Below, piece after piece: positions 26,448 through 49,835 of a stretch of DNA of 64,000 nucleotides (positions are counted from its first letter, which is position 1; the number at the start of each line of letters is the position of its first letter). Source of the DNA: Pyrodictiaceae archaeon. GTDB taxonomy: Archaea; Thermoproteota; Thermoprotei_A; Sulfolobales; Pyrodictiaceae. Location: NCBI GenBank assembly GCA_027036135.1, contig JALVSY010000007.1:484880-548879 (forward strand), in the 5' to 3' direction. The notes beneath the pieces were generated by a model. It searched no databases, was not told where the DNA came from, and worked only from the letters and a program-made list of their open reading frames with translations. Both the position numbers and the translations under genes were made by a program.

Positions 26448-27668
26448 ATGGGGGGTGGGTTCATGAGGATAGCGCATGTGGTGCAACGCTATAGGCCTGC
26501 TTCCTTAACGGGCTCTGAGCGCTATATAGATGCATTAACAATTTATATGCTGGCTAGGGGTCACAAGGTTGACGTATATACTTCCACGGCTCTAGACTGG
26601 TGCAGGCTTTTCGTCCCCTTCGGGCAAGCACTCCCGCAGGGCGTCGAGGATTATGGTTACTTGAGAATTGTGAGGCTCAAACCCAGCTACTTCAAGCAAC
26701 TCACATCAACGGCGCTCTGCCTCCTATTGAAATTACCTCTCCCCTGTTTTCTCCGCGGCCCTAGGCTATCTAGTCTATCTAGCTTGATGCTAGAGGATTA
26801 CGACATTATTGGAGTAACCCCTGCCCCTTTCCCATATTTACTGGATACGCTGCGGGCTGCGAGGAGAATCGGCGCAGGGCTTGTAGTAATGCCTTTTATG
26901 CACTTTGATCTAAGAGAATACCGTAACCCTTACCTGCTCTCAGTTATTGGTGCAGCCGACGCTGTTATTGCCGCAACTCCCTGCGAGGCAAAAATATTGA
27001 TGCGCGTATATGGCGCTAGGAGGGTCCGGGTTGTTGAGCCTGGTTTATGGATTAGAGAGTGGCTTCAAGGCATGCCGGGTAGAGAGGAGGCAAGGCTCAA
27101 GCTCGGTCTAGGAGAGGACGAATTCGTTATCTTACTTCCCCATAGGGCACGGGCTAAGGGGGCCTACCACGTGCTCGAGGCAGCAACGATCGTTGCGAGG
27201 AAGGGTATTCCAATCAGTGTCCTTGTCTTCGGCTTTGTTAAAGACAAGGGATTCGAGAGGCTAAAACGCCTAGCAACTATTAACGGTGTTAAAGTAAAGG
27301 ATCTCGGAGCCGTTGATGAAGTAACGAAGAAGATCCTATACGCGGCAAGCGATATATTAGCGCAACCATCCATAGCTGATTCCTTCGGAATAGTGTACCT
27401 AGAGGCATGGGCAGCGCGGAAACCAGTAATAGCAGCTGATACCCTTGCCATGAAGTGTGTCGTGAGGCATGGTGTTGATGGTTTCCGCGTACCTTTTGGA
27501 AACGTTAAGGCACTAGCAGAGAAGTTTCTAAGACTAGCACTTGACCCGGGGCTCAGAGAGCAAATGGGTGAAGCAGGCTATAGGAAGGTTATAAGGCGAT
27601 ACGATTGGAGGATAATTGGTAAGAGAATGGAGGAAGTATACTATGAAGTCGCATCCTCGGCTCAATGA
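26448..27668 (+). CDS. GT4 family glycosyltransferase
   Basis: GSERY, DSFGIVYLEAWAARKPVI, YDW near C-terminus. Confidence 0.9.
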   Translation: MGGGFMRIAHVVQRYRPASLTGSERYIDALTIYMLARGHKVDVYTSTALDWCRLFVPFGQALPQGVEDYGYLRIVRLKPSYFKQLTSTALCLLLKLPLPCFLRGPRLSSLSSLMLEDYDIIGVTPAPFPYLLDTLRAARRIGAGLVVMPFMHFDLREYRNPYLLSVIGAADAVIAATPCEAKILMRVYGARRVRVVEPGLWIREWLQGMPGREEARLKLGLGEDEFVILLPHRARAKGAYHVLEAATIVARKGIPISVLVFGFVKDKGFERLKRLATINGVKVKDLGAVDEVTKKILYAASDILAQPSIADSFGIVYLEAWAARKPVIAADTLAMKCVVRHGVDGFRVPFGNVKALAEKFLRLALDPGLREQMGEAGYRKVIRRYDWRIIGKRMEEVYYEVASSAQ

Positions 27669-28809
27669 CGTCATCGGTATGCTTGTAAACGGTGAGCTAA
27701 GAAACACTCTATCCAGTCACTATCATAGCATCCTTCACAGGGTTGCAGAGATTAGTACATCGGCTAAGGGAGCGCGCCACGTACTCCTAGGAATAGCGTA
27801 TCGCATTGCCCGTAGATTAGGGTTGCTTAGCAGCCCTGCTGTCGGCGAATTAACTTGGGAAATGAATCTCCTTGCCTTGCTCGATATCGTGTATCGTGGA
27901 CCCGAATATAAGCCGTTAATCGAGGCGCTCGACAAGGACGGAAAAGAGACATTAGCGCTATATATATCTGGGCTTGCGTGTCAGACTGGTGTCCAGCAGC
28001 TATGCGAAAAAGCGAAGACGCTCTTTGAGGAGAAATGTCGCTTGCTAGAAGCAATAAGAAAAAGAATACATGTCATACGCAAGCTAGGTGTGAGCCATAC
28101 AAGTGGCCGACCAATATTGCTAGTTAGAATATATGACCCTATAGGCCCGCCTCGCCTTCTTACAGACAGTCTTGACATATTAACAGAGAGCATAGCAACT
28201 ATTAAGCCAAACATATTTAAGAAAATTATTAACAATGCAACGTCGCTAGCAGTACTCGACGTTGGAGCATACAATGGCGAGACCAGTACCAGGTATGCAG
28301 CATTAATGCTCCGCGAAGGAATAAAAGGGACTGTATACGCTATCGAGCCTGACCCGGTATCATACAAGCTCCTAGAATATAATGCACGTCTCTTAGGGCA
28401 TCCAATAAGAACCATCCACGCCTTCCTCGCCTCGAATTATGGTTATGAGATGCTCGTTCCACGGGGTCCTTCTTCGTCCATGTCGAGTATTGCAGGGGCG
28501 GCGGGAAAAGTAAGAATCCGGGTTATACCAGCACACGTTATTGTGGAAAGGGCCTTGAACGAGTCAAACGCGGATCATCTGCACGTAAGAATAGATACAG
28601 AAGGCGCAGAGGACCTCATAATAAACGACCTAATCAATACATTTAAGAGGCTCAGAAGCTTTTCAGCTGAAATAGCTGTTTATCACCGCTTAGGGGATCT
28701 TCTTAAATTCTATAACAAACTGAAGGGCATAGCAACTGGTTTTACACTTGTATGGGCCTCATGCGATTTTCGAGACCTTATGCTCGTCGCTTATAGAGCA
28801 GCTCTCTAG
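27643..28809 (+). CDS. FkbM family SAM-dependent methyltransferase
   Basis: VLDVGAYNG, YAIEPD, IDTEGAE, IAVYH. Confidence 0.85.
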   Translation: MKSHPRLNDVIGMLVNGELRNTLSSHYHSILHRVAEISTSAKGARHVLLGIAYRIARRLGLLSSPAVGELTWEMNLLALLDIVYRGPEYKPLIEALDKDGKETLALYISGLACQTGVQQLCEKAKTLFEEKCRLLEAIRKRIHVIRKLGVSHTSGRPILLVRIYDPIGPPRLLTDSLDILTESIATIKPNIFKKIINNATSLAVLDVGAYNGETSTRYAALMLREGIKGTVYAIEPDPVSYKLLEYNARLLGHPIRTIHAFLASNYGYEMLVPRGPSSSMSSIAGAAGKVRIRVIPAHVIVERALNESNADHLHVRIDTEGAEDLIINDLINTFKRLRSFSAEIAVYHRLGDLLKFYNKLKGIATGFTLVWASCDFRDLMLVAYRAAL

Positions 28810-29024
28810 TCATGTGTAGTATATTGTTGTGCTATCTCTTATGGCAAGTAATAGTAGGCCGGAAACGATAGTAAATAAGATAACGATGTCTCATAGCGTA
28901 TAGCTTGGTGCAGCGTCTTAATAAACGATGGTCACATGGTTTACATCTTTCTTTAGCCATGTTCTTTAAATAAAAGGATGACGGGTAGTGCCTGGCTGCC
29001 AACAGTCTTACCGGTTGTCATGCA

Positions 29025-29807
29025 ATGGTCAAGGTTGTTGAGGCTACGAGGCCCCAGGTAGTATTCCACCTAGCAGCATTAACCCCAGTTTCTGAGAGCT
29101 TTTCACCAGCCAGTAACCTATGCAGAGATAAACTATATTGGACAGTAAACCTGCTCGAGGCTCTCCGGAGACACGGCTTTGAGCAACTTCGGCTCTTCGT
29201 ACTAGCTGGCACCACGGAGATGTACGATACCCCGGAACCTATTGAGGATGGCCGGGCTTTTAGCCCAAAGAGCCCCTATGCGGTCAGCAAAGTCGCTGCA
29301 ACGTACTATAACGAGTATATGTGGCATACATACAGGATGCCGACAGTAACAGTTATCCCCACAAATACCTACGGGAGGGCACATGTGGGACAGAGACACT
29401 TCTTCATAGAGAAAATAATTACCAGCATGCTCCTCGGTGCCAAGGAGATAAAACTAGGCAACCCAGAGACCATAAGAGACTGGATGTTCCGCGAAGACCA
29501 CGTCAATGCATACATAAAGGTAATGGAGGCAGCACTTAACGGAAAAGAAGTATTCGGTCAAAGATTCTACTTCGGTACAAGCAAGGACTATATAACCAGA
29601 GAGACGTTCGAAAAAGTTAAGCGGCTCATAGGCTGGGAGGGCCGTGCTATTTGGAACGTATACCTACGCCCAAATGATAGCAAAAGAATAATCGTCAACC
29701 CCGAGAGAGCAAAGAAAGTACTGGGCTGGGCTCCGCGCTACAATCTCGAGGAAGGGCTACGAAGAGCCATAAACGAGTGGAAAGAAGTACTCAGCCTAAC
29801 CTCATAG
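29025..29807 (+). pseudogene. 5'-truncated NDP-sugar dehydratase/epimerase (extended SDR)
   Basis: FHLAA and SPYAVSK present but N-terminal GxxGxxG absent; compensating frameshifts around 29100-29141. Confidence 0.75.
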
Positions 29808-31181
29808 CACTTGTGTTATTATCTTGTCTAGCTCTGGGTGCCTCGCTGACCTAAGATGCCTCAGTAGTAGCTCGCGTAGCCTTTGCGCTATCTCCCTCTC
29901 CTCCTCTACGAGGTTTTGTTTTTCTCCCGGATCCCTGTCTATTTTGAAGAGCTCTCTTTGATCATGGTGCTTTGCGCCGCACCGAGGACATTTCTCTGGC
30001 CGATTGTGCATGAAACTTTCAATATACTTCCATGATCCAGCGATTATGCCGAAAAGCGTATCTAGCCCTGGCTTATCGGCCACCATCCCGAAGTAAAGAA
30101 CTCGGTTCCCATCCATGTCGGGGGCATTGGGCAATGAAAGGTCTAAGCCGTCCCATCTCCTAGAAAGCCTTCTATATAGCTCCTCGTCTATTGCACCAGA
30201 TACACGTAGGATGCCGAAAATTGTTGGCGCGACATCAACTAGTGAGACGCGATTAAGCATGATTGGTTCCTCTCTCCCTGCAGGTTTTATAGCAAGGAAG
30301 GATCTAATTACCTCCTCGTGTACTGTGTGGTGATCGAAGAAGGCGCCGTGTTCTCCTAGCGACTCGCCGTGATCAGAATAGATAATGATTAATGTGTCAT
30401 CGTATAGGCCCGTGTCACGTAACTTGTCTATGAAGAGGCGAAGCGCCTCTCCGACGCTGCATGCTGCTGCCTGGTACCTTTCAATAATGTCTTCGATTGT
30501 GTGGGCTCCCCAGGCTACTAGGTCGCGTAAGTAGCGCCTCCACTGCTCATCTATTACTTTCTCGAGGAGAACCGAGAGCGGTGTACCGGGCCGGCGTTTA
30601 GGGCTACAATGGGTTACGAGATAAGGTGTATGTGTGTCCCAGATATGCACAAATGCTAGGAATGGTTTCTTCGCCCCCTTTAGGCCACGCAATACTTGAC
30701 CAAGAATGGTGATAACGGGAGGATAAGGTGTCGGAGGATTTCGGAAAAATGCATGAGCTATCTTTCGCGAAGCCCGTAGCGCGGCGTGCTTTGCAACGTA
30801 ACTAAGCTTTATCAATCCGTGGCGCAGGGCTGGCAGCTCTATGTATCTTTTGAAGCCTCTACGATGCCAACGTCCAAGAATATCATAGGCCATTGTCTCG
30901 TAGCCATTAGAGGCAAGCACTTCGGGTAGCCAATTATCCCTTGTCCTAAGCCTAAGTAACATTGTCTCGGTTCCTGTAACCCATGGTCCATGGCGTAGGA
31001 TGCCGTGCCTTACCGGGTACATGCCAGTAAAAACCGTTGTAACTACGGGATCCGTTCCGTAGAGAGGTGTGTAGACCTCTTTGTAGACTAGCCAGTCAGA
31101 GCCAAGTGCACTAGAAACGTATCGGGCATAGTCGCTTCGTAACGCATCTATGTGAATAATCAATATATTGGGTCTAGCCAT
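29802..31181 (-). CDS. sulfatase-like AlkP superfamily protein
   Basis: PNILIIHIDALRSD, TDPVVTTVFTG (no CxPxR), WDTHTPY, SDHGE, DPGEKQNL. Confidence 0.85.
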   Translation of the reverse strand: MARPNILIIHIDALRSDYARYVSSALGSDWLVYKEVYTPLYGTDPVVTTVFTGMYPVRHGILRHGPWVTGTETMLLRLRTRDNWLPEVLASNGYETMAYDILGRWHRRGFKRYIELPALRHGLIKLSYVAKHAALRASRKIAHAFFRNPPTPYPPVITILGQVLRGLKGAKKPFLAFVHIWDTHTPYLVTHCSPKRRPGTPLSVLLEKVIDEQWRRYLRDLVAWGAHTIEDIIERYQAAACSVGEALRLFIDKLRDTGLYDDTLIIIYSDHGESLGEHGAFFDHHTVHEEVIRSFLAIKPAGREEPIMLNRVSLVDVAPTIFGILRVSGAIDEELYRRLSRRWDGLDLSLPNAPDMDGNRVLYFGMVADKPGLDTLFGIIAGSWKYIESFMHNRPEKCPRCGAKHHDQRELFKIDRDPGEKQNLVEEEREIAQRLRELLLRHLRSARHPELDKIITQVL

Positions 31182-31495
31182 ATCTTACCCCATTAATCGT
31201 GTCGTATTATCCAAAACATAGCACTTGACTACGTGCCTTCCTTAATATGAGTTGAGTACCTGTAGCTATGTAGCAACGAGCCTAGTATAGTTACGACGGA
31301 GGATATACGAGAGAGGCACTTGCTCCGCCTAGCTATGGCTTAATTAAGGCAATGATTCAATCAAGTCCAGCATGAGGTATCTTTGTTACTAGTGATATTA
31401 GATCCATCATGAAGCTCGCTTTATATTGTGAAATATCCCACCTTAACTATAATGTTGATGACCATGTGACCATGTTGGCCACCTCATCGTCTGCA

Positions 31496-32080
31496 TTATT
31501 GTTTTCTTAGCTCTGCGTATAGCTTGTATAGCTCGTCTATTCTCTTATTTGTCCCGTCAATTCTCTTGTTTATTTCCTCTATCTTGACTAGCAGGGTTTC
31601 TTGAACTCTATCAATCCTCCTATTAGTCTCCTCAATCTTGGCTAGCAAGGCTTCTTGTACCTTGTCGATTCTCCTATTAGTATCGTCTATTCTTCGGTTA
31701 GTCTCCTCGATCTTTGCTAGTAGGGTGGCTTGGACGGAATTTATTCTTGCTGATAGAGTTTCTTGTACCTTGTCTATTCGTTTATTTGTTTCCTCTATCT
31801 TGGCCGATAGCGTCTCATGTACCTTGTCTATTCTCTTGTTAGTCTCATCTATTCTCTTGTTTGTTTCATCTATTCTCTTATTGGTTTCCTTTATTTCGTC
31901 TCCTAGCTCTCTCCTTGTCTCCCGTATCTCTTCCCTTAGCTCCCGTGTCTCCTTATGGGTTAGGTCTAGGTAGAGGAGCAGAATATCCTCTGTGCTAAGC
32001 TTTTGCTTCTTCTCAAGCTTCTCTAGAATCCTCTTAGAAACCTGGCTAAGCACAGTAGACAATACCGCTTCCTCGGCCAA
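31496..32080 (-). CDS. paREP15-like coiled-coil repeat protein, copy 1
   Basis: KLSTEDILLLYLD head then RIDETNK repeats; start set at the TTG GCC GAG shared by all three copies. Confidence 0.8.
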   Translation of the reverse strand: MAEEAVLSTVLSQVSKRILEKLEKKQKLSTEDILLLYLDLTHKETRELREEIRETRRELGDEIKETNKRIDETNKRIDETNKRIDKVHETLSAKIEETNKRIDKVQETLSARINSVQATLLAKIEETNRRIDDTNRRIDKVQEALLAKIEETNRRIDRVQETLLVKIEEINKRIDGTNKRIDELYKLYAELRKQ

Positions 32081-32319
32081 GCGCCTTGCCCCGGGGGTAC
32101 CTATTAGTTGTAGGACCATAATTACTTTATTAGGGGATGCCTCGGCTGGCTTAGGGTTTTTCGTTTTCCTCGGCGGCTCCGAGGGTGTGGTTCCCTAGTG
32201 CTGTTCCTGGCTTTTCTTCCTGGTTCCTGGCTGTGTTCCTGGAGCGGCTGCACGGTGATGGCTGGGCACTATTTTCTACCTCCCGGGTGTTCACCCTAGG
32301 TGGCAGGGGTGGTTCTTGT

Positions 32320-33399
32320 TTGAGGGGTGTCTTGCTTCATGGGGGGCTTGGTACCCGGTTGAGGCCTTTGACTCATACTGGTCCTAAGCAGCTTATCCGT
32401 GTCGCTGGTAAGCCGGTTTCTCAGTGGGTGTTGGAGGATCTCCGTGACGCTGGTGTAAGGGAGATAGGAGTGGTTCTTGGCACAGTGTCTCCTCTCCGTG
32501 TCGTGGAGTACTATGGTGATGGCTCGTGGCTAGGGGTTGAGCTGACCTATATTTATCAAGGATACCCGTATGGCTTGGCTCACGCCGTTTATCTTGCCAG
32601 GGACTTTGTCGGGGATGAGCCCTTCGTGGTGTATCTCGGCGATAATATCCTGGCTGGTGGTATCAGGGAGTACGTGGAGAGGTTCTTGGAGAGCGGCGCC
32701 GACGCCATGGTCTTGCTCGCGGAGGTTGAGGACCCGCGGCGCTTCGGGGTAGCAAAGTTCGATGAAGGGGGCCGTCTCGTTGGGCTTGTCGAGAAGCCCC
32801 GTGTACCGCCGAGCAACTACGCGCTCGTCGGGGTCTACATGTTCCGCCCACCCCATATCTTCCGAGCTATTGAGGGCCTTAGGCCTAGTTGGCGCGGGGA
32901 GCTCGAGATAACCGATGCTATCCAGCGCCTCATTGACTGGGGCCTAAGGGTAGACTACGCCGTCGTGGAGGGGTGGTGGAAGGACACAGGGACTCCCGGT
33001 GACATTCTCGAGGCTAACCGGTTGCTCCTCGACGAGAAGATACCCGGGGCCCGTCTAGAGGGCGTGGTGGAGCCCGGTGCCCGTGTAGAGGGGAGAGTGG
33101 TTGTCGAGGAGGGTGCCCGTGTAGAGAGTGGCGCGGTTGTCCGTGGCCCCGCCTATATTGGCCGGGGGAGCAGGGTTGGGCCGGGCACCTACGTGGGGCC
33201 TTACACGAGTCTGGGCTGGAACACCGTGCTCGAGAACGTGGAGATAGAGAACAGTGTGGTAATGGATGGCGCTAGGCTGGTCAACGCTGGCCGCGTCGTG
33301 GATAGCCTCGTGGGAGCCGAGGCAGAGATAGCCACGAGCACCGGGCTGCCGAGCGGTCACCGGTTCATAGTCGGCGAGAAGGCGAGGATAAGGCTCTAG
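32320..33399 (+). CDS. rmlA: glucose-1-phosphate thymidylyltransferase (long form)
   Basis: GGLGTRLRPLTHTGPKQL, YLGDN, EKP, RGELEITD, WWKDTG, hexapeptide-type tail. Confidence 0.93.
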   Translation: MRGVLLHGGLGTRLRPLTHTGPKQLIRVAGKPVSQWVLEDLRDAGVREIGVVLGTVSPLRVVEYYGDGSWLGVELTYIYQGYPYGLAHAVYLARDFVGDEPFVVYLGDNILAGGIREYVERFLESGADAMVLLAEVEDPRRFGVAKFDEGGRLVGLVEKPRVPPSNYALVGVYMFRPPHIFRAIEGLRPSWRGELEITDAIQRLIDWGLRVDYAVVEGWWKDTGTPGDILEANRLLLDEKIPGARLEGVVEPGARVEGRVVVEEGARVESGAVVRGPAYIGRGSRVGPGTYVGPYTSLGWNTVLENVEIENSVVMDGARLVNAGRVVDSLVGAEAEIATSTGLPSGHRFIVGEKARIRL

Positions 33400-33415
33400 G
33401 AGGGCATGGGTAGCC

Positions 33416-34432
33416 GTGAGGGTGCTGGTTGCTGGCGGCGCGGGGTTCATGGGTAGCAACTTTGTCCGCTACCTCCTAGGGCGCTACCCGGACGCCGAGG
33501 TACTGGTCTATGATAAGCTTACGTATGCTGGCCGCCTGGATAACCTAAGGGACGTGTACTGGGACAAGAGGTTCAGGTTCGTCCTCGGAGACATTGGTGA
33601 CGAGGAGCGACTAATGGAGGTTATAAAGAGCTTTGAACCGGACGTGATAGTTAACTTCGCGGGCGAGACCCACGTAGACCGGAGCATCAATGAGCCAGCC
33701 CCCTTCCTGGAAACCAATGTTGTTGGCGTGTTCCACCTACTCGAGGTTGCTAGGAGGCTCGAGGTGCCCCGCCTAGTACATATAAGCACCGACGAGGTCT
33801 ACGGCGACCGATGGAACCTCCCCCCGGCCAGTGAGGATGATTGTTTCAGGCCGAGTAGCCCCTACTCTGCTAGCAAGGCCTCCGGGGACCTACTATGCCA
33901 AGCTTATTGGAGAACCTATAGACTACCAGTAATTATTCTACGGCCCTCTAACAACTATGGCCCATACCAGTACCCGGAGAAGCTCATACCACGGACAATT
34001 ATCCGCGCACTACACGACAAACCGATACCGCTCTACGGCGGGGGATGGCAGAAACGGGACTGGCTATACGTAATGGACTTCGCGGAGGCCCTGGATACTG
34101 TTATGAGGCGGGGCTCCCCGGGGGAGGCCTACAACGTGCCAGGCTTCAACGAGAAGACCAACCTGGAGGTCGTGAGGGACATACTGAGGCTCATGGGCAA
34201 GCCAGAGACACTGATAAAGACGGTGGAGGATAGGCCTGGTCATGACCGCCGCTACGCAATGAGGGGCGAGAAGATACTCTCCCTGGGCTGGCGCCCAAAG
34301 ACACCGTGGCACAAGGGACTAAGGGAGACCATTGAGTGGTACCTGGGGAATGAGTGGTGGTGGCGCCCCCTCCTAGGCGACGAGTTCTTCGCCGAGGACA
34401 CGCCCTGGGAAACGAGGCGACAAAACGGCTAG
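33416..34432 (+). CDS. rmlB: dTDP-glucose 4,6-dehydratase
   Basis: GGAGFMGSN, DKLTYAG, THVDRSI, STDEVYG, YSASK, DRPGHDRRY. Confidence 0.96.
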   Translation: MRVLVAGGAGFMGSNFVRYLLGRYPDAEVLVYDKLTYAGRLDNLRDVYWDKRFRFVLGDIGDEERLMEVIKSFEPDVIVNFAGETHVDRSINEPAPFLETNVVGVFHLLEVARRLEVPRLVHISTDEVYGDRWNLPPASEDDCFRPSSPYSASKASGDLLCQAYWRTYRLPVIILRPSNNYGPYQYPEKLIPRTIIRALHDKPIPLYGGGWQKRDWLYVMDFAEALDTVMRRGSPGEAYNVPGFNEKTNLEVVRDILRLMGKPETLIKTVEDRPGHDRRYAMRGEKILSLGWRPKTPWHKGLRETIEWYLGNEWWWRPLLGDEFFAEDTPWETRRQNG

Positions 34433-34444
34433 GAGGTGTAACCC

Positions 34445-35347
34445 GTGGCGCGCGTACTCCTGACCGGAGCCGGGGGCCTCCTCGGCCAGAAACTGGTAAA
34501 GGTACTAGCGGATAGGGGCCACGAGGTAGTAGCTGTTTACCGTGTCCACGAGCCCCCAGCGGCCCAAGGCGTTAAGCCGGTTAGGCTGGACGTGACTGAC
34601 TGGGTTAGGCTAGAAGACCTAGTGCTAAAGACCCGGCCAGGCACAATAATACATGCAGCGGCCTACACTGATGTGGATGGCTGCGAGAAGGACAAGCAAT
34701 GGGCGTGGAGAGTAAACGTCGCCGCCACTAGGAGCATAGTAAGGGCAGCAAGGGTCGTCAACGCGCACCTAGTCTACGTCTCCACTGACTACGTGTTTGA
34801 CGGCGAGAAGGGGATGTACAGGGAAACCGATACACCGAGCCCCGTGAACTACTACGGGTTAACAAAGCTCGTAGCAGAGGAGCTTGTGAGGAGCAGCGAG
34901 CTACTATACACAATCGTTAGGCCGAGCGCGATATACGGTATAGGGGGCTCCAAGAAGAGCTTCGCCGAGTACGTAGCAGAAAAACTAGCCCAAGGGGAAC
35001 AAGTCAAGGCACTCACAGACCAATACGTGTCACCGACCCACAACGAGCTATTAGCGGAGGCCCTAGCCGAGATAATAGAGCTCAAGCCACTAGGCACGCT
35101 CCACGTAGCAGGCCCCAGGATGAACCGATACGAGTTCGCCAAGAAAATAGCAGAGACACTAGGCCTACCAACAAGCCTAGTAAAGCCAGCAACCATGGAG
35201 GAGATGCAGGGGAGATGGGTAGCGAGGAGACCCAGGGACTCAAGCCTAGACACGGGCAAGGCGCAAAACCTACTAGAGACACCTTTCAGCGACATAGACG
35301 AGGCAATGAAGAGACTAAAGAGAGACTGGGAGAACAAGGGTAGGTAG
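34445..35347 (+). CDS. rmlD: dTDP-4-dehydrorhamnose reductase
   Basis: GAGGLLG, AAYTDVDGCE, STDYVFDG, YGLTK. Confidence 0.95.
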   Translation: MARVLLTGAGGLLGQKLVKVLADRGHEVVAVYRVHEPPAAQGVKPVRLDVTDWVRLEDLVLKTRPGTIIHAAAYTDVDGCEKDKQWAWRVNVAATRSIVRAARVVNAHLVYVSTDYVFDGEKGMYRETDTPSPVNYYGLTKLVAEELVRSSELLYTIVRPSAIYGIGGSKKSFAEYVAEKLAQGEQVKALTDQYVSPTHNELLAEALAEIIELKPLGTLHVAGPRMNRYEFAKKIAETLGLPTSLVKPATMEEMQGRWVARRPRDSSLDTGKAQNLLETPFSDIDEAMKRLKRDWENKGR

Positions 35348-35349
35348 CG

Positions 35350-35904
35350 ATGCCCTTCGAGTTCCAGAGACTAGAGATACCCGACGTAGTACTGGTAAAG
35401 ATAAAGATGTTTAGCGACGAGCGCGGCTTCTTCGCGGAGCTCTACAAGAGAACACCGTTCCTAGCCAGCGGCATACCCTATGACTTCGTCCAGGTCAACC
35501 TCTCCTACTCCAGGCGGGGCGTGGTTCGGGGGCTTCACTACCAGCTCAAGCCCCACGAGCAGGGCAAACTAGTGTATGTTCTACGGGGCCGGGTAGTGGA
35601 CGTGGCCCTCGACATTAGGAAGGGGAGCCCCTGGTACGGGCGACACGTCATGGTTGAGCTTACGCCGGGTACTGGTCTCTGGGTTCCGCCGGGCTTCGCG
35701 CACGGGTTCCAGGCGCTCGAGGACACGTTGTTCCTCTACCTAGTAACCAAGGAGTATAACAGGGAGGCGGAGAGGTGCATACGCTGGGACGACCCAGGGC
35801 TAGGAATACAGTGGCCCATCAGAGACAACGTGGTGATCAGCGACAAGGACAAACAATGCCCAGGGTTCAGGGAGGCGGAGACAAACTTCGAGTACCCAAT
35901 ATAA
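35350..35904 (+). CDS. rmlC: dTDP-4-dehydrorhamnose 3,5-epimerase
   Basis: DERGFF, RGLHYQ, QGKLV, PGFAHGF, SDKD. Confidence 0.96.
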   Translation: MPFEFQRLEIPDVVLVKIKMFSDERGFFAELYKRTPFLASGIPYDFVQVNLSYSRRGVVRGLHYQLKPHEQGKLVYVLRGRVVDVALDIRKGSPWYGRHVMVELTPGTGLWVPPGFAHGFQALEDTLFLYLVTKEYNREAERCIRWDDPGLGIQWPIRDNVVISDKDKQCPGFREAETNFEYPI

Positions 35905-36316: not shown

Positions 36317-36955
36317 TTACCGCCCTCTTAGCTCTGCGTATAGCTTGTATAGCTCGTCTATTCTCTTATTTGTTTCCTCGATCTTAGCAAGTAGTGTTTC
36401 CTGAACCCTATCAATCCTCCTATTTGTCTCTTCTATTTTTGCTAGTAATGCTTCCCGTACATGATCTATCCTAGCCGATAGAGACGTCTGTATAGAATCT
36501 ATCCTCTTGTTTGTCTCATCTATTCTCTTATTGGTCTCCTCTATTTTTGTTAATAGTGTTTCTTGTACTTTGTCTATTCTTTTATTGGTTTCATCTATGC
36601 GTTTATTTATCTCCTCTATTTTGGCCAAGAGGGTCTCTTGTACGCGGTCTATCCTCTTATTGGTATCGTCTATGCGCTTATTTGATTCATCTATTTTAGC
36701 CAATAATGTCTCCTGCACGTTACCAATTCTCTTGTTCGTCTCGTCGATGCGTTTGTTCGTCTCATCTATTCTCCTATTGACCTCTCTGATCTCTTCCCTT
36801 AGCTCTCTCCTTGTCTCCCTTATCTCCCTATGGGTGAGATCAAGGTACAATAATATCAGATCTTCTGTGCTGAGCTTCTTCCCCTTCTCCAGCTTCTCCA
36901 ATATCTTCTTAGAGACCTGGCTAAGAACAGAAGACAATACAGCCTCCTCGGCCAA
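36317..36955 (-). CDS. paREP15-like coiled-coil repeat protein, copy 2
   Basis: Same head and RIDELYKLYAELR tail as copy 1, with more repeat units. Confidence 0.8.
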   Translation of the reverse strand: MAEEAVLSSVLSQVSKKILEKLEKGKKLSTEDLILLYLDLTHREIRETRRELREEIREVNRRIDETNKRIDETNKRIGNVQETLLAKIDESNKRIDDTNKRIDRVQETLLAKIEEINKRIDETNKRIDKVQETLLTKIEETNKRIDETNKRIDSIQTSLSARIDHVREALLAKIEETNRRIDRVQETLLAKIEETNKRIDELYKLYAELRGR

Positions 36956-43230: not shown

Positions 43231-43440
43231 CTATATATAGCCTAGCGCTCTTAGTCTCTCCTTCACCTTTTCTTCGTCCTCTTTGCTCATTTCAGGGGTT
43301 TCTTCCTCTGTTCCAAGGGCTTCCTGTAGTAGGAACTCTACTAGCTCCTCTACCGTGTTAAAGCCTCCCTGTTCCTCTATGAATTGCTTTGCTTTCTCGT
43401 AAAGCTCCTTGCTTATAGCTATGGTTACTTTCTCGGCCAT
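43231..43440 (-). CDS. CopG/RHH protein with ERLRALGY tail
   Basis: VTIAISKELYEK...FNTVEELVEFLL...KVKERLRALGYI. Confidence 0.85.
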   Translation of the reverse strand: MAEKVTIAISKELYEKAKQFIEEQGGFNTVEELVEFLLQEALGTEEETPEMSKEDEEKVKERLRALGYI

Positions 43441-43460
43441 GTCTCGTTCCCTGGTCTTGG

Positions 43461-44819
43461 TTATTTGTGCTGGGTTATTATTTGTTCTAGGTGACTTCTT
43501 ATCTTCTCTATCCTTATCTCGCCACGGTTACCCTTCTCTAGGGTCTCCTCTGGGTCGTAGACTGTGTAGACGCCATGCCAATCATGCACCGCGTCGTCTG
43601 GTCCTCGGTCGTTCTCCTCTAGGTAGTTGGTTGGCCAGCCCAGGGTCCCGGCTGGGCGCCACCATAGGTCGTCTAGGTAGAGCATGAGGTCTGGCGGATC
43701 CCCATTGACCTCGGGGTATATCTCGGCTGGGCGGTAGGCCTTGTTTAGCCATTGCTCGTTGCTTGGGCCCTTGATTTTCTCTAGGTCTCTGCGTAGCTGC
43801 TCTAGTGTCTCCTCGTAATACTTGGGCTCAACGGCGCCCTTTTTCTCCCTGCCCTTGAGGTTTATGAATACTCTGCTATAGTATCCTCCCCACGCCCAAG
43901 CAATAGTATGCTCCCAGTCCACCATGTCCTCGCGTAAGTCGGTGCCCGGTTTCAGCCCAGCCGGGTCTACTTTTAGCTTGAGGTAGCCTTGCTCGATTAG
44001 CCACTGATTTAGGAGGAAGGCCCCCTTCATTGCCTTTATCCCGTGGTCGCTCACTATAACGATTACCGTGTCTCTTGGCAGTTTCCTGTGTAGTTTCTCG
44101 AACCACTCGTCTATCCTTCGGTAAACCTCTGGTACTACCTTGCTGTATTCGGGGTGGTGCTCGTACCTTGGGTGGGTTTTGTCAAAGTATCTCCAGAAAG
44201 CGTGGTGGGCGCGGTCAACGCTTATCTCTACGTGGATGAATATGTCCCATTGCTTCCTCGTAGCAAGGTACTCTACTTGGCGCAAGTGGTTGTCAAGCAT
44301 CTGTAGTAGCTCTCTAGCCACCCGGGACTTGTCGTGGCTCCGATAAACTATGTCGAACCTTGTCGGCCCAGTCGCGGCCTCTAACTCCTTTCTCAGCCAT
44401 GGGGGGAAGGTGTAAGGCTTCTCCGGCCCAGGCGTAGTGAAGTCCGTGACCATGAAGCCATGGACAGGCTTCGGAGGGTAAGTCGGGGGTACTCCGTAGA
44501 GGCCTACTCTTAGACCCCTCTTCCCCGCCCAGTCCCAGATGGTCTCGGCCCGTATGCTCCTGCTATTCACTATATAGTAGCTGAACTCCCCTGGGCGGCG
44601 GTGTCTGAACCCGTAGACGCCTAGCTCTCCCGGCGTCTTGCCCGTGAACATGGTCATCCAGGCGGGAACCGTTATGGGTGGGTGGCAGCTCCTCATAATG
44701 TATCTCTGCGACTCTGCTACTAGGCCAGAGATGTAGGGGAAGTAGCGCTCACCAAGCTCGGTATAAAGCACGCTAGGAGGCAACGAGTCCAGCCCGAGGA
44801 CGAAGACTCTTCTAGTCAT
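43461..44819 (-). CDS. AlkP superfamily (type I phosphodiesterase-like) protein
   Basis: VLGLDS, PPITVPAWMTMFTG, DRAHH, VSDHG, GPDDAVH. Confidence 0.9.
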   Translation of the reverse strand: MTRRVFVLGLDSLPPSVLYTELGERYFPYISGLVAESQRYIMRSCHPPITVPAWMTMFTGKTPGELGVYGFRHRRPGEFSYYIVNSRSIRAETIWDWAGKRGLRVGLYGVPPTYPPKPVHGFMVTDFTTPGPEKPYTFPPWLRKELEAATGPTRFDIVYRSHDKSRVARELLQMLDNHLRQVEYLATRKQWDIFIHVEISVDRAHHAFWRYFDKTHPRYEHHPEYSKVVPEVYRRIDEWFEKLHRKLPRDTVIVIVSDHGIKAMKGAFLLNQWLIEQGYLKLKVDPAGLKPGTDLREDMVDWEHTIAWAWGGYYSRVFINLKGREKKGAVEPKYYEETLEQLRRDLEKIKGPSNEQWLNKAYRPAEIYPEVNGDPPDLMLYLDDLWWRPAGTLGWPTNYLEENDRGPDDAVHDWHGVYTVYDPEETLEKGNRGEIRIEKIRSHLEQIITQHK

Positions 44820-44907
44820 CTTGGTTAATACACCCCGCAGGACAACAACCTGGTGAGGAGCCCTAGGACTGGATAATAAATTGAGAAGATGTCTTGACTC
44901 TACGCCT

Positions 44908-45465
44908 CTACTTGCTTACATAGTTTATCTTCTCAAGTATTAAGCCTAGGAGCTTCTCAGTGTTCTCCTCAACGGTATTGTTAACAGTGTCTAGGACTAT
45001 GTCCGGGTTCTCGGGTGGCTCGTAGGGGTCGCTTATCCCGGTGAAATGCTTAATCTCCCCCCTCAGCGCCTTCTTGTACAAGCCCTTCGGGTCCCGTTTG
45101 ATGCACTCTTCCAGGGGGCACTTAACATAGGCCTCTATGAAGGGAGCCTCCTCCTCAACAATCCTCCTAACCTCTGCCCGGACATCGCGGTAGGGCGAGA
45201 CGAAGCTACACAGGACTATCACGCCGTTCCTAGCCAGTAGCCTGGCTATCCACGCGACTCGTAGGAGGTGTCTTCGGCGCTCCTCCCTGGTATAGCCGGC
45301 ATCGGGGTTAATGGTTCTCCTAACCCAGTCGCCGTCAAGAACCTCTACGCGGTACCCCATGGCTCTCAGCTTGTCGGCAACTCTAGTAGCTATTGTGGTC
45401 TTCCCGCTACCGGGCAGCCCAGTGAGCCAGACAACGAGGCCACGGTCAAGGCACTTAGCAGGCAT
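44908..45465 (-). CDS. cysC: adenylyl-sulfate kinase
   Basis: WLTGLPGSGKTT, LDGD, SFVSPY, RDPKGLY, FTGISDPYE. Confidence 0.96.
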   Translation of the reverse strand: MPAKCLDRGLVVWLTGLPGSGKTTIATRVADKLRAMGYRVEVLDGDWVRRTINPDAGYTREERRRHLLRVAWIARLLARNGVIVLCSFVSPYRDVRAEVRRIVEEEAPFIEAYVKCPLEECIKRDPKGLYKKALRGEIKHFTGISDPYEPPENPDIVLDTVNNTVEENTEKLLGLILEKINYVSK

Positions 45466-45537
45466 GTCTTAGCAACCCCTCCAACTATGCACTTCCAAAG
45501 GGGACTAAGTATCCATTGCTCACTGTTAGAGGCCTCT

Positions 45538-46326
45538 TTATAGCCCTGCCAGCACCTGGGCTATCTTCATGAGCGCAACTATTACCATGGTTGCTGCCAG
45601 CGCCCTTTGCGCTAGTACTGTCCGTGTCCTTCGGAGCAAGTGGGCTGCGAGAGGCGTAGCTACGAGAGCACCAAGGGCAAGTACAAGGGCCATTAATGGG
45701 TCTAGGTGCCCTGATAGTGTGTATACGAGGGCTACGAGCACAAATGCCGGAAGCTTGACCAGTGGTGTAACGGCTATAGCGCTTCGGAGATCAAGGCCTA
45801 TTTTCCTCTGAGCAAGCACTACTACCGCGCTGTAGCCCCCGCCTATGAGCGCCTTGTATGCCCCGGCGAGCACGCCATAGAACACTGCTACCCAGCTCAT
45901 ACTCGTCGGTGAGGGGTCTTCTCTGTGACTATGTATGCTCATGTACAGCATCGTTGCTAGGGCTAAGAGGAGTACAGAATATGATGAGACCACTACGCTA
46001 CGAGGGAGCTTGGCAGCTATGGTAGAGAGCCCTAGTGCTGCTATGAGCGACGCGGACGCGAATAACGCTAGTGCTCTTCTAGCCTCGATTGCTTTAGGGG
46101 AAATATTGCCTAGCCTATGATGCATAGCTAGCACCGGCAACGCGGAAACAACTTGTGCTAATGCGGCGGCGCCAGCCACGCTGCGCGGATCATAGCCCAG
46201 TACACCGCAGAGGACTAGGCTAGCTACTAGCCCGAACCCCGCGGCAAAGGAGTAATCGAGGAGCGCTGCCACGAACCCTGTGACGAGCCAAAGCGTTACC
46301 GAGGCATAGCTCATTACTAGTTTCAC
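45538..46326 (-). CDS. TauE/SafE (TSUP) family membrane transporter
   Basis: Hydrophobic two-repeat protein with Gly-rich loops, next to cysC. Confidence 0.7.
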   Translation of the reverse strand: MKLVMSYASVTLWLVTGFVAALLDYSFAAGFGLVASLVLCGVLGYDPRSVAGAAALAQVVSALPVLAMHHRLGNISPKAIEARRALALFASASLIAALGLSTIAAKLPRSVVVSSYSVLLLALATMLYMSIHSHREDPSPTSMSWVAVFYGVLAGAYKALIGGGYSAVVVLAQRKIGLDLRSAIAVTPLVKLPAFVLVALVYTLSGHLDPLMALVLALGALVATPLAAHLLRRTRTVLAQRALAATMVIVALMKIAQVLAGL

Positions 46327-46336
46327 CGGAGTAGTT

Positions 46337-46401
46337 ATTAATTAGATTTAATTATGTCTCCCTACGTGGCCTAAGAGGCAGGCATTAATAAGATTTAATT
46401 A
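46337..46401. promoter_or_regulatory. divergent promoter with an 18-bp direct repeat
   Basis: ATTAATTAGATTTAATTA (46337-46354) and ATTAATAAGATTTAATTA (46384-46401) between divergent operons. Confidence 0.55.
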
Positions 46402-46441
46402 ATCAGCTACGTATTGCTCCCTTCCCGGGGCGCTAGGAGAC

Positions 46442-46678
46442 ATGGGCGAGCAGGCTAGGCGCGCCAAGTACACCACTGTCTCGATACCTGTCACTCTCTA
46501 TGAGAGGATTAAGCGCCTCATAGAGGGAACAGGCTTCACGAGCGTATCCCAGTTCGTCGCCTATGTTTTGAGAGAAGTTGTCGCGGAGATGGAGGAGGAG
46601 AAGTTAAGGAGCGAGACTGTTACCGAGGAGGAGAAAAGGGCTATTATTGAGAGGCTTAAGCGCCTAGGCTACCTCTAA
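46442..46678 (+). CDS. CopG/RHH protein with ERLKRLGY tail
   Basis: YTTVSIPVTLYERIK..TGFTSVSQFVAYVLRE...IIERLKRLGYL. Confidence 0.88.
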   Translation: MGEQARRAKYTTVSIPVTLYERIKRLIEGTGFTSVSQFVAYVLREVVAEMEEEKLRSETVTEEEKRAIIERLKRLGYL

Positions 46679-46710: not shown

Positions 46711-47871
46711 GTGGTGTCCAGACCCCATGGCGGGAAACTAGTTGACCGGACAGTCTCTCCTCGCCGAGCCGAGAGGCTAAGGGAAGAGGCAAAGGAACTC
46801 CCAAGGATAGAGCTCGGCTCCGGGCTAGCAGCCGATGTAGCCAACATCGCTCACGGAGTCTATAGCCCGCTTGAAGGCTTCCTCGTACAAGAGGACTATC
46901 TGAGCGTCCTCGACGATATGAGGTTGAGCAACGACTTGCCCTGGACAATACCGATAGTCCTAGACGTTGACCCAGGAGAGATAAGCGGGGTCAAGGAGGG
47001 AGATGATGTGGCACTCTATTACCGGGGCGAGCCCCTTGCACTAATGCGCGTTGAAGAGATATATGGCTGGGACAAGAAGGAATACGCCCAAAAAGTCTTC
47101 AAGACAACCGACCCTCGTCACCCCGGTGTGAAGAAGACCTTTGTACGGAAAGAGCTACTAGTAGGAGGCCCAATAGACCTAGTGGGAGAGATGCCGGAGC
47201 CCTTCGAGAAGTACCGGCTATGGCCCAAGGAGACAAGGGTACTGTTCGGGGCACGTGGCTGGAAGACCATAGCAGCGTTTCAGACGAGGAATGTGCCTCA
47301 CCTAGGCCACGAGTACGTCCAGAAGGCCGCTCTAACGTTTACAGATGGCTTGTTCATAAACCCGCTCGTGGGGTGGAAGAAGCCAGGCGACTACCGCGAC
47401 GAAGTCATAGTAGAGGCCTACCAGGCACTAATCAAGCACTACTACCCACGGGACAGCGTTGTCTTCAGCGTACTCCGCATGGAGATGAGGTACGCGGGGC
47501 CAAGAGAAGCGATACACCATGCAATAGTTAGGAAGAACTTCGGAGCAACACACTTCATAGTAGGCAGAGACCACGCAGGAGTCGGGAACTACTACGGCCC
47601 CTATGAGGCATGGGACTTGTTCAAAGAGTTCCCAGACCTGGGCATCACGCCGCTCTTCGTCCGCGAAGCCTTCTACTGCAAAAAGTGCGGCCAAATGGTA
47701 AACGAGAAAATATGCCCTCACAGCGAGGAATACCGAGTAAGAATAAGCGGGACAAAGCTACGCGCGATGATAAAACGAGGAGAAAAACCACCAGAGTACA
47801 TGATGCGACCAGAAGTCGCAGAAGTAATCCTAAGACACCCTAACCCCTTCATATCAGAGGATGAACTATAG
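46711..47871 (+). CDS. sat: sulfate adenylyltransferase
   Basis: PHGGKL, YSPLEGF, FQTRNVPHLGHE, YAGPREA, FIVGRDHAG, ISGT. Confidence 0.97.
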   Translation: MVSRPHGGKLVDRTVSPRRAERLREEAKELPRIELGSGLAADVANIAHGVYSPLEGFLVQEDYLSVLDDMRLSNDLPWTIPIVLDVDPGEISGVKEGDDVALYYRGEPLALMRVEEIYGWDKKEYAQKVFKTTDPRHPGVKKTFVRKELLVGGPIDLVGEMPEPFEKYRLWPKETRVLFGARGWKTIAAFQTRNVPHLGHEYVQKAALTFTDGLFINPLVGWKKPGDYRDEVIVEAYQALIKHYYPRDSVVFSVLRMEMRYAGPREAIHHAIVRKNFGATHFIVGRDHAGVGNYYGPYEAWDLFKEFPDLGITPLFVREAFYCKKCGQMVNEKICPHSEEYRVRISGTKLRAMIKRGEKPPEYMMRPEVAEVILRHPNPFISEDEL

Positions 47872-47934: not shown

Positions 47935-48402
47935 TTATTGTTTTCTTAGCTCTGCGTACAGCTTGTATAGCTCGTCTATTCGTTTGTTTGTCTCCTCTAT
48001 TTTAGCCAAGAGAGTCTCCTGCACCTTATCTATCCTAGTCGATAGGGATTCCCGCACCTCATCAATTCTTCTATTAGTCTCCTCTATCTTTGCTAATAGG
48101 GTAGCTTGTACAGAATCTATTCTAGCTGATAGAGTCTCTTGTACTTTATCGATTCTCTTATTGGCCTCATCTATTTTTGTTAGCAAAGTTTCTTTTATCT
48201 TGTCTATCCTCTTATTAGTATCGTCTATTCTCTTGTTTGTCTCTTTTATCTCTTCTCTTATTTCCCTCATTTCTTTGTGCACGAGGTCAAGATACAATAG
48301 CATCAAGTCCTCTGTGCTTAGCCGCTTTCCCTTCTCAAGCTTCTCCAAGATCCTCTTCGATACCTGGCTAAGCACCGTAGATAGTACTGCTTCCTCGGCC
48401 AA
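47935..48402 (-). CDS. paREP15-like coiled-coil repeat protein, copy 3
   Basis: Same head and tail as copies 1 and 2, fewest repeat units. Confidence 0.8.
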   Translation of the reverse strand: MAEEAVLSTVLSQVSKRILEKLEKGKRLSTEDLMLLYLDLVHKEMREIREEIKETNKRIDDTNKRIDKIKETLLTKIDEANKRIDKVQETLSARIDSVQATLLAKIEETNRRIDEVRESLSTRIDKVQETLLAKIEETNKRIDELYKLYAELRKQ

Positions 48403-48551
48403 ACCCGCAGAGCCCAAGTACTTACTAGCACTAAGTAACCATTATTACTTTATGAGAGCATTGGCTCCTGAAAAAGAAGCGATCTTTCTTAACAAGGCAT
48501 ATTGATTAATCTTATTCAGAAAGGCTTGAGGCTGGGCTACTTTTTCATAGA

Positions 48552-48779: not shown

Positions 48780-49835
48780 GTGGGAGGGTGGTGCTATGTG
48801 CATATATGCACAGAGGTAGCGGAGAAGCTACTACGTATACCTAGGCTCTATGTTGTCTATCACTGGGATGCTGATGGTGTTGCCTCGGCTGCGCTCGTCC
48901 TGCGCCACTTGGGCTCAAGGGTTAGGGGGCTTGGGGTGCCACGTATAGGCGTCTATGCTGCTGACGCAGTTCCCTTACCCGGTAGCGGTGCTGCATTGTT
49001 GGTGCTTGATTATGGTCTCCCGGGCTCTGTGTACGAGGAGCTTGCCCGGAGACATGGTGGGGAAGTACTGGTTATTGATCATCACAGGGTGGCTCCTCCT
49101 AGTGGGGGAGGCGTTGTTTATTGTAACCCGGTTGCAGTGGGTCTTGGCGGGGAGGAGGACTATCCTGCTAACAGTGTCCTCGTTTACAGGCTCCTCAAGT
49201 CACCACGTGACCCGGGTGACCGTGTCCTAGCGGCTCTAGGTGTGGCTGGCGACTTGGCGCCGTACATCGATGCTGGGAGGCCTCATCCTGGGCTCCGAGT
49301 TGCCTCGGAGCTGCTAAGGGGCACTGGGATCTCCCTTAGAGAGCTCCGCCGCGTAGCGGAGTCTATTGATTCTTGTTACCGCTTACTGGACGAGGACTGT
49401 CTACGCTATGCTCCGCGGAGGGCAGCAGAGGACCCCGCTGGGCTAGTGAGTGATGAAAGGCTGCTCGGGGCCCGGGAGAGGGCTGAGAGGCTCGTGGAGG
49501 AGGCCATGGAGAGGGCTCAGCTGCTCTCGGAGACCGGGAAGGTACTGGTCTACTTCCTTGAGATGGATGCCTATGTTACGAGCGCTGTTGGTAGGAGACT
49601 AGCGGCTAGGAACCCGGACAAGGTGGTTGTATTGGTGCATAGCTTGCCTAGCCAGGGCCGGGGCACTATATATGCGAGGAGTATATCCCATGGGCTCAGC
49701 AGCGTGGCTGATCTGCTGAGGGCTAGGGATGTGAGGGTCGCGGGTAAGACAAACGTACTCGTAATAGAGTACAGCGGCGAGGAGTACGAGGAGCCACTAA
49801 GGATTCTCCTCGAAGCGATTAAGGTGGCACTATAA
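48780..49835 (+). CDS. DHH family phosphoesterase
   Basis: HWDADGVASA, VLD, VIDHH, GVAGD. Confidence 0.88.
   Translation: MGGWCYVHICTEVAEKLLRIPRLYVVYHWDADGVASAALVLRHLGSRVRGLGVPRIGVYAADAVPLPGSGAALLVLDYGLPGSVYEELARRHGGEVLVIDHHRVAPPSGGGVVYCNPVAVGLGGEEDYPANSVLVYRLLKSPRDPGDRVLAALGVAGDLAPYIDAGRPHPGLRVASELLRGTGISLRELRRVAESIDSCYRLLDEDCLRYAPRRAAEDPAGLVSDERLLGARERAERLVEEAMERAQLLSETGKVLVYFLEMDAYVTSAVGRRLAARNPDKVVVLVHSLPSQGRGTIYARSISHGLSSVADLLRARDVRVAGKTNVLVIEYSGEEYEEPLRILLEAIKVAL

Follow-up and report, generated by a model that had tools for sequence, protein, structure and literature searches.

We analyzed a 64,000-nucleotide stretch of DNA from an archaeon of the family Pyrodictiaceae, phylum Thermoproteota (contig JALVSY010000007.1 of assembly GCA_027036135.1, forward-strand positions 484,880 to 548,879; hereafter the window, whose own numbering is used for its features). 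Our subject is a sulfate-activation cluster in this window and, within it, two small genes, RHH1 and RHH2, whose products resemble ribbon-helix-helix (RHH) DNA-binding proteins and share a conserved C-terminal tail. The locus is organized as two divergent operons, with tauE, cysC, AlkP1 and RHH1 on the minus strand, RHH2 and sat on the plus strand, and a DHH-family gene further on in the plus direction. The two RHH-like proteins, their tails and the adjacent genes are located as follows:

43231..43440, minus strand: RHH1, a 69-residue ribbon-helix-helix-like protein with a C-terminal tail; the open reading frame (ORF) ends ...EKVKERLRALGYI.
43234..43305, minus strand: tail module of RHH1 (final 24 residues), consisting of an acidic stretch, an amphipathic helix and LGYI; profile match with E 9.1e-12.
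46442..46678, plus strand: RHH2, a 78-residue ribbon-helix-helix-like protein whose tail ends ...IIERLKRLGYL; directly 5' of sat.
46604..46675, plus strand: tail module of RHH2 (final 24 residues); profile match with E 8.7e-12.
43461..44819, minus strand: AlkP1, a tail-less NPP-type enzyme (PF01663, E 3.5e-46, 158.8 bits against a cut-off of 23).
44908..45465, minus strand: cysC, tail-less APS (adenosine 5'-phosphosulfate) kinase (PF01583, E 3.1e-61).
45538..46326, minus strand: tauE, a TauE/SafE-family anion permease, the first gene of the minus-strand operon (PF01925, E 4.7e-20), present in some of the related loci.
46711..47871, plus strand: sat, ATP sulfurylase, with PUA_2 and ATP-sulfurylase domains (Pfam).
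48780..49835, plus strand: DHH-family protein (PF01368, E 8.7e-7), in other loci often placed between sat and AlkP1; from its context, possibly a phosphatase of pAp (3'-phosphoadenosine 5'-phosphate).

An initial annotation of the window, made from the sequence, had drawn attention to the acidic linker and the ERLRALGYI or ERLKRLGYL ending of the two small proteins and to the position of RHH1 close behind AlkP1. The ORF translations agree with the endings, and RHH1 starts at 43440, 20 nt past the end of the AlkP1 stop codon at 43461. RHH1 and RHH2 are paralogs (33% identity, E 3e-11). Their tail is an amphipathic helix of 14–18 residues that follows a flexible linker, and it is built in a regular manner: a hydrophobic residue with an S/T cap, an acidic turn, the helix and a terminal LGY[ILF]. 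It lies outside the predicted DNA-binding fold. Within the whole 2.2-Mb genome, five of the 11,658 six-frame ORFs of at least 40 residues end in LGY[ILVMF] followed by 0–3 residues, and RHH1 and RHH2 are the sole plausible genes among these five to combine an acidic linker with RLxxLGY. A 24-column profile of the tail, built from archaeal RHH tails, likewise finds just the RHH1 and RHH2 loci in this genome (E ~9e-12; the next match has an E-value of 0.03). Conservation of the tail is pronounced. All of the 120 best homologs of RHH2 and all of the 120 best homologs of RHH1 end in LGY[ILF], and in the RHH1 alignment the tail is the best-conserved block. Across 401 Thermoproteota genomes nearly all matches to the profile are ORFs of 65–100 residues, frequently paired; some lineages retain a single RHH gene of the two.

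Database names of the homologs are of the CopG or Arc/MetJ type, and the organisms in them assign this archaeon to the Pyrodictiaceae/Desulfurococcales. The AlphaFold2 (AF2) model of RHH2 (pLDDT, the predicted local distance difference test score, 79.7) has an extended segment at residues 10–16, helices at 17–26 and 35–56, and the tail helix at 62–75; the model is a monomer, in which the N-terminal strand cannot pair. For RHH2, no close solved structure was found. Some RHH2 orthologs are considerably longer, at 213–236 residues (L071 12099-12740, L077 314-1003 and L080 2507-3217), and carry an additional N-terminal RHH domain (RHH_10/CopG) followed by the RHH2 core and the tail, so that they may be single-chain tandem RHH proteins.

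To describe the setting of the two genes, we compared 20 loci of the class to which the archaeon belongs. RHH2 precedes sat at a distance of no more than 50 nt in 18 and is no further than 0.8 kb from it in the remaining 2. RHH1 is present in 19, including one frameshifted copy, and the contig ends in one case. In the frameshifted case (L033 10800-10975, genome G010) the RHH1 ortholog is split, with RHH2, sat, AlkP1 and cysC intact; the split may reflect an error in sequencing or mark a pseudogene. The same 20 loci contain cysC in 16 cases, an AlkP1 ortholog in 12 and a DHH homolog adjoining sat in 7. Five genomes without AlkP1 at the locus encode it elsewhere, three of them on the same contig, 17–20 kb from the RHH pair. 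Among the 151 genomes of the class that were sampled, 51 have an RHH2 match, 44 AlkP1 (E<=1e-20) and 66 Sat; more distant Sat genes of two families in this sample occur without RHH or AlkP1. Elsewhere in the phylum, 20 loci outside this class display the recurring order RHH1-RHH2-sat-(DHH)-AlkP1-cysC, and RHH2 stands directly before sat, within 50 nt, in 13 of these. Thus, RHH1, RHH2, sat, AlkP1 and cysC, with or without the DHH and TauE genes, are a module conserved across Thermoproteota. No toxin family was found in the conserved module, where the neighbors of the RHH genes are AlkP1, sat, cysC, tauE and DHH. The genome itself has five matches to the PAPS reductase family PF01507 (PAPS, 3'-phosphoadenosine 5'-phosphosulfate); this does not settle either way whether PAPS is made solely for sulfation.

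Upstream of RHH2 we identified two copies of an 18-base palindrome, TTAATTAA-N2-TTAATTAA, in which the octamers are spaced 10 bp:

46338..46355, no strand assigned: distal operator-like box, with 2 mismatches to the palindrome TTAATTAAATTTAATTAA.
46385..46402, no strand assigned: proximal operator-like box, ~40 nt upstream of the RHH2 start.

These are the two sites with no more than 2 mismatches in the 2.2-Mb genome, and both fall in the 115-bp tauE/RHH2 intergenic region. At up to 3 mismatches, the box is found just 5' of RHH2 in 15 of the 20 class loci and, in one more locus, 5' of the first gene of the operon; it is found in none of the 5 loci without a canonical RHH2. The palindromic boxes are therefore candidate RHH operator sites, and, because they are conserved and unique in the genome, RHH2 is probably a local autoregulating repressor of the sat cluster. 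A different element accompanies bacterial RHH2-like genes of 72 codons: a conserved TATAATACT...AGTA, 20–60 nt upstream of the gene (L113, L115, L118, L133, L139, L140 and L144), the inverted-repeat arms of which lie over TATAAT, a -10-like element. It is unlike the archaeal box and is a candidate operator as well.

The distribution of the tail extends well beyond archaeal RHH proteins. A HMMER scan with AlkP1 returned 11,262 relatives, of which the best 150 representatives were inspected. Seventeen of these 150 end in an acidic linker and RLxxLGYh plus 0–1 extra residue, and variants of this ending are found on another 2; the tail is missing from the closest AlkP1 relatives. This bears out the statement in the initial annotation that such a motif commonly terminates sulfatase- and AlkP-like proteins, and the range of carriers proved wider than stated there. 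We compiled 80 bacterial loci from a scan of species genomes seeded with six tail-bearing AlkPs. They come from Desulfomonilaceae, Syntrophaceae, Anaerolineae, Latescibacterota, Krumholzibacteriia, Chthoniobacterales, Gaiellaceae, Planctomycetes, Acidobacteriota and others. The archaeal tail profile, iterated once against the 8,578 ORFs of these loci (E<0.01), produced 63 matches, every one of them within 3 residues of the C-terminus. The 63 carriers comprise 21 AlkP1-type enzymes, 14 APS kinases (~200 residues, within sat-AlkP1-cysC operons), 5 CysC-AlkP fusions, 8 sulfatase-type proteins (PF00884 confirmed for one), ~12 small RHH-like proteins and 3 unclassified ones. Among the small RHH-like carriers are the 72-residue RHH2-like proteins encoded directly 5' of sat in Latescibacterota and Krumholzibacteriia, and one of the unclassified carriers is a DUF2061 protein (L131 3423-3719; 98 residues, predicted membrane protein, encoded between sat and AlkP1 in an Anaerolineae metagenome-assembled genome). 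None of the 17 bacterial Sat ORFs has the tail. In the archaeal loci it is absent from all 23 AlkP1 orthologs, all 31 Sat and all 21 CysC proteins. A homolog search with the tail region of RHH1 gave 37 candidates for tails on proteins longer than RHH1, none of which scored. Two apparent fusions were discarded as ORF-calling artefacts in high-GC DNA, namely a 643-residue AlkP-RHH-tail protein (L133) and a 912-residue AlkP1-sulfatase protein (L129); no RHH-AlkP fusion was found apart from the artefactual L133 case. Since all 63 bacterial matches are C-terminal and fall on several protein families, the ~20-residue tail is not peculiar to AlkP proteins; it is a C-terminal module that is portable among proteins of sulfate-activation clusters in Archaea and Bacteria. 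The idea of the tail as an AlkP trait holds insofar as it is shared with AlkP-family enzymes, and gives way where it is found on APS kinases, sulfatases, the DUF2061 protein and bacterial RHH proteins.

AlkP1 itself retains the residues expected of an active NPP-type enzyme, as judged from an alignment of 35 sequences: D11, D202, H206, D258, H259 and H412 are invariant and T50 is near-invariant, positions that presumably correspond to the NPP catalytic residues, including the metal ligands and the Thr nucleophile. The model of an AlkP1 relative has the ENPP1/PhnA fold (matches at E 1e-16); for AlkP1, no close solved structure was found. Several members of the family are fusion proteins. Sat-AlkP fusions (P0261, P0309 and the 861-863-residue Anaerolineae proteins) are all tail-less and are followed by a gene for a tail-bearing CysC, and the APS kinase fusions include P0270 and P0391. 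Further partners are a pyruvate-kinase barrel, a GT2 glycosyltransferase, a nucleotidyltransferase and a methyltransferase. The set of AlkP1-family fusions also lists P0246, P0326 and P0373 as well as L088, L098, L100 and L102. These partners connect AlkP1-type proteins with APS or PAPS and with glycan-related functions. AlkP1 is thus a candidate user of APS or PAPS, and its family seems to be a PAPS-pathway enzyme that has yet to be characterised.

Which protein, then, might the tail bind? The initial annotation had proposed an anticorrelation between fused tails and neighboring RHH genes. An anticorrelation of this kind is seen in 79 bacterial loci: AlkP1-type enzymes with their own tail have a tail-bearing neighbor in 1 of 16 cases, tail-less ones in 35 of 63 (Fisher p 4e-4). 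The sample was seeded with AlkP and contains non-independent relatives, and four variant-tailed seeds count as tail-less in it. Co-occurrence points in the same direction. Of the 401 sampled genomes of the phylum, 53 have a tail match at E<=1e-5, and 51 of these 53 also have an AlkP1-like gene. A PF01747 match, indicative of Sat, is present in 42 of them, in one more a fragment of Sat lies at the end of a contig, and 10 have no Sat; in 7 of those 10, these seven being 93–99% complete, the tail gene is within 2 kb of an AlkP gene, and in two of these 7 within 15 nt. Single cases are instructive as well. One genome (G098) has no Sat, and its RHH1, with a perfect tail, lies beside an AlkP paralog in a glycosyltransferase cluster. 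In another genome (G061), which is complete, Sat is encoded and PF01663 is absent; the tail there has degenerated to ...KGYL. Because of this alternation between fused and neighboring tails, the co-occurrence and the two single cases, comparative genomics favors an AlkP1-family enzyme as the partner of the tail. AF2 modeling of one tail-bearing AlkP gave a pLDDT of ~87 for the tail helix versus ~66 for the linker. A complex prediction for AlkP1, Sat and RHH1 residues 36–69 gave 0.02 and 0.00 against a mark of 0.32; run without controls, it speaks neither for nor against binding.

Taken together, these observations led us to a reading to which we assign about an even chance, namely that RHH1 and RHH2 are repressors of the cluster equipped with a portable docking tail, the socket for which is most likely an AlkP1-family enzyme. 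RHH1 and RHH2 would be fixed parts of an ancient module for the activation and use of sulfate, in which Sat would produce APS, CysC would convert it to PAPS and the NPP-type AlkP1 would be the likely consumer, with the DHH phosphatase and the TauE permease as frequent extra members. RHH2, perhaps together with RHH1, would bind the two boxes in the divergent tauE/RHH2 promoter region and repress both operons. The tail would act as a docking peptide that elsewhere is fused to an AlkP enzyme, an APS kinase or a sulfatase. Where AlkP1 has no tail of its own, a neighbor would provide one in trans, and here the two repressors would do so. AlkP1, depending on whether it is free or occupied, could titrate the repressors, and transcription of the cluster would then follow the state of the enzyme. 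The initial annotation had likewise proposed that the tail is supplied in trans as a docking peptide for the enzyme. The portability of the tail, the cis/trans alternation and the tail-less archaeal AlkP1 orthologs agree with this, although the carriers beyond AlkP do not. A heterodimer of the two RHH proteins, raised there as a possibility, has to be set against the lineages that retain a single RHH gene. A bolder version, which we regard as doubtful though conceivable, sees the tail as an exchangeable plug for one socket on an unrecognised class of PAPS- or APS-using AlkP-superfamily enzymes. The plug would have moved between APS kinase, sulfatases, the C-terminus of the class itself and RHH repressors across Bacteria and Archaea, building a sulfation metabolon, and the repressors of Thermoproteota and Latescibacterota would compete for that socket, so that transcription would directly report the number of free sockets.

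Several observations weigh against repressors that dock on AlkP1. One genome (G113; 90 contigs, 96% complete) encodes Sat and a perfect tail, and no PF01663 gene was found in it. Two others (G246 and G260), both fragmented assemblies, have the tail but no AlkP match. In ~28 of the 79 bacterial loci a tail-less AlkP1 has no tail-bearing neighbor within the locus, and, as the bacterial loci were seeded with AlkP, the presence of AlkP in them is by design. The RHH assignment itself faces the difficulty that the Pfam matches of both proteins lie under the curated cut-offs: RHH2 matches RHH_1 with E 0.0011 (19.3 bits, cut-off 20.5), and RHH1 matches DUF6364 alone (22.7 bits, cut-off 27.3). The top Foldseek matches of RHH2 are RHH proteins (NikR, MazE6, PrpA, ORF56, omega and Arc), but they are non-significant (E ~1). 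Finally, Sat is the sole core member never observed with a tail, which would also fit Sat as the socket.

The last point is the basis of an alternative that we consider unlikely, according to which Sat would be the hub of a metabolon for PAPS: the tails of CysC, AlkP, sulfatase and RHH proteins would plug into it, and its occupancy would be sensed by the repressors. Besides the absence of the tail from all archaeal and bacterial Sat ORFs, this alternative is favored by the position of RHH2, nearly always immediately before sat, and by the fusions, because the Sat-AlkP fusions are tail-less and followed by a tail-bearing CysC and the CysC-AlkP fusions, which are without Sat, retain the tail. 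However, the Sat-less tail-bearing genomes described above, the majority of which have the tail gene beside an AlkP gene, are at odds with it, as is the perfect tail of the Sat-less G098. Moreover, many bacterial loci with tail-bearing AlkPs or sulfatases have no sat within 8 kb.

The tail might alternatively serve for self-association, an explanation to which we likewise give a low probability. In the Mnt repressor, a C-terminal domain joins dimers into higher oligomers. By the same token, the tail helix could assemble RHH dimers into higher oligomers that bind the two boxes cooperatively, and on enzymes it would mediate mere oligomerisation with no contact between enzyme and repressor. An amphipathic helix behind a flexible linker, the presence of two boxes, the usual two tail-bearing RHH paralogs and the loci with a single tail-bearing protein would all be compatible with such a role. 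On the other hand, a generic helix would not be expected to be confined to one functional cluster across Archaea and Bacteria, or to occur in near-identical sequence on unrelated folds, and the anticorrelation between AlkP1 tails and tail-bearing neighbors would not be expected either.

Quite improbable, in our estimate, is the option that RHH1 and RHH2 are ordinary local repressors, the tail and the RHH core together binding APS, PAPS or pAp, or the tail setting protein stability, with the tails of the enzymes convergent or unrelated. The operator-like boxes at the promoter agree with ordinary repressors, and MetJ and NikR are RHH regulators that use small-molecule co-repressors. Yet a helix of 14–18 residues alone is unlikely to form a ligand pocket, and the same ~20-residue module, with its cap, acidic turn and LGYh end, recurs on five protein families, invariably at the C-terminus in the 63 bacterial matches. 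One C-terminal module on five families suggests a common partner and is otherwise hard to explain.

It is highly improbable that the tail is a targeting signal, that is, a loading peptide for an encapsulin or another compartment or a proteasome-docking end of the HbYX type: cargo-loading and encapsulation peptides do combine a flexible linker with a short C-terminal helix, an encapsulin gene is present in the genome on a different contig, and tyrosine is penultimate in most archaeal tails, but four of the five complete tail-bearing genomes have no match to PF04454 (the search covered family-1 shells), no shell gene is conserved in the loci, 1–2 residues follow LGYh in many tails (LGYID, LGYLE, LGYIS), and a DNA-binding repressor would be an odd cargo. 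The PF04454 result does not support an encapsulin cargo peptide. HbYX docking was rejected on the endings of RHH1 orthologs in LGYID or LGYLD (L043, L044 and L049) and the 1–2 extra residues of many bacterial tails: because residues follow the LGYh end, the tyrosine is not fixed as the penultimate residue. A PIP-box identity of the tail was rejected as well, since the residue spacing does not agree. The encapsulin of this genome (Linocin_M18) is encoded at 471223-471891 of contig C16 (G000), in an open frame of 352 codons.

Literature searches at the level of titles and abstracts did not find the motif, LGYL together with sulfatase, RHH together with sat, or an AlkP-superfamily sulfotransferase described, and both the tail motif and the gene module thus seem undescribed in print at this level. 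Parallels to the proposed repressors docking on AlkP1 exist. In Bacillus, the C-terminal tail of the transcription factors GlnR and TnrA binds glutamine synthetase. As there, we are dealing with small DNA-binding proteins (putative in our case) that have a C-terminal peptide beyond the DNA-binding fold, the proposed partner being an enzyme of the regulated pathway. In contrast to GlnR and TnrA, the predicted fold is RHH, not MerR-type, and the tail is also fused to pathway enzymes; the docking on an enzyme is what we propose from comparative analysis. PutA, a trigger enzyme, has an RHH domain fused to proline-catabolic enzymes, and thereby links an RHH module with an enzyme from the very operon that the module controls. 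The coupling is covalent in PutA, whereas here the RHH proteins are separate and the tail is proposed to be detachable. The type II antitoxins ParD, CcdA, RelB and CopG-like VapB are RHH proteins and resemble RHH1 and RHH2 in the N-terminal RHH region, the flexible C-terminus (partner-binding, as proposed here), the gene adjacent to that of the partner and the probable autoregulation. Unlike in antitoxin loci, the neighbors are metabolic enzymes without a toxin gene, and the tail is conserved across phyla and common to enzymes. The two proteins are similar to MetJ, Arc, Mnt, CopG and NikR in size, in the strand-helix-helix pattern and in palindromic-repeat operators (candidate boxes here), but differ from them in the Pfam scores below cut-off, the extra long helix 2 and the conserved tail. 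Holding makers and users of APS and PAPS together is also not without precedent. Complexes of PAPS synthase with sulfotransferase and Sat-CysC fusions do so, and the Sat-AlkP and CysC-AlkP fusions are alike in this respect; a direct PAPSS2-SULT2A1 interaction is the subject of one article (PMC6016456). The proposed arrangement differs from these complexes in that a short portable tether would be involved, the consumer would be of the AlkP superfamily and not a classical sulfotransferase, and repressors would share the tether.

A second AlkP-superfamily protein is encoded elsewhere in the window:

29802..31181, minus strand: AlkP2 (PF00884, E 1.9e-21), tail-less.

The statement in the initial annotation that both AlkP proteins end without the tail is correct, as AlkP1 ends ...LEQIITQHK and AlkP2 ends ...LDKIITQVL. 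AlkP2 had also been put forward there as a possible partner of the RHH proteins, and this was not substantiated, no link between AlkP2 and the RHH genes being seen in the window. The sulfatase-like AlkP2 is part of a glycan-synthesis island (27616-35904) adjoining the sulfate-activation cluster, along with an FkbM-type methyltransferase, an epimerase and a full RmlA/B/D/C-like dTDP-rhamnose set. The island would be compatible with the cluster acting in glycan sulfation. A PIN-domain protein (PF01850; 40389-40790, plus strand) is encoded a few kb from the cluster, and no relation to the RHH pair was seen. Three paralogous coiled-coil proteins are encoded on the minus strand (31496-32119, 36317-36955 and 47935-48417), one of them between sat and the DHH gene. 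The first and the third have a near-identical N-terminus, tandem heptad repeats of the 'ETNKRID' type and weak HSBP1/DUF1664 matches.

If the tail is a docking peptide, it would represent a simple and widespread way of wiring a pathway, in which one short movable peptide joins the makers and the users of activated sulfate. On a repressor, this peptide would put the genes of the enzyme complex under the complex's own control. A further outcome is that AlkP1-family proteins stand out as uncharacterised partners of sulfate activation and may represent a novel type of enzyme that transfers sulfuryl groups or cleaves APS/PAPS.

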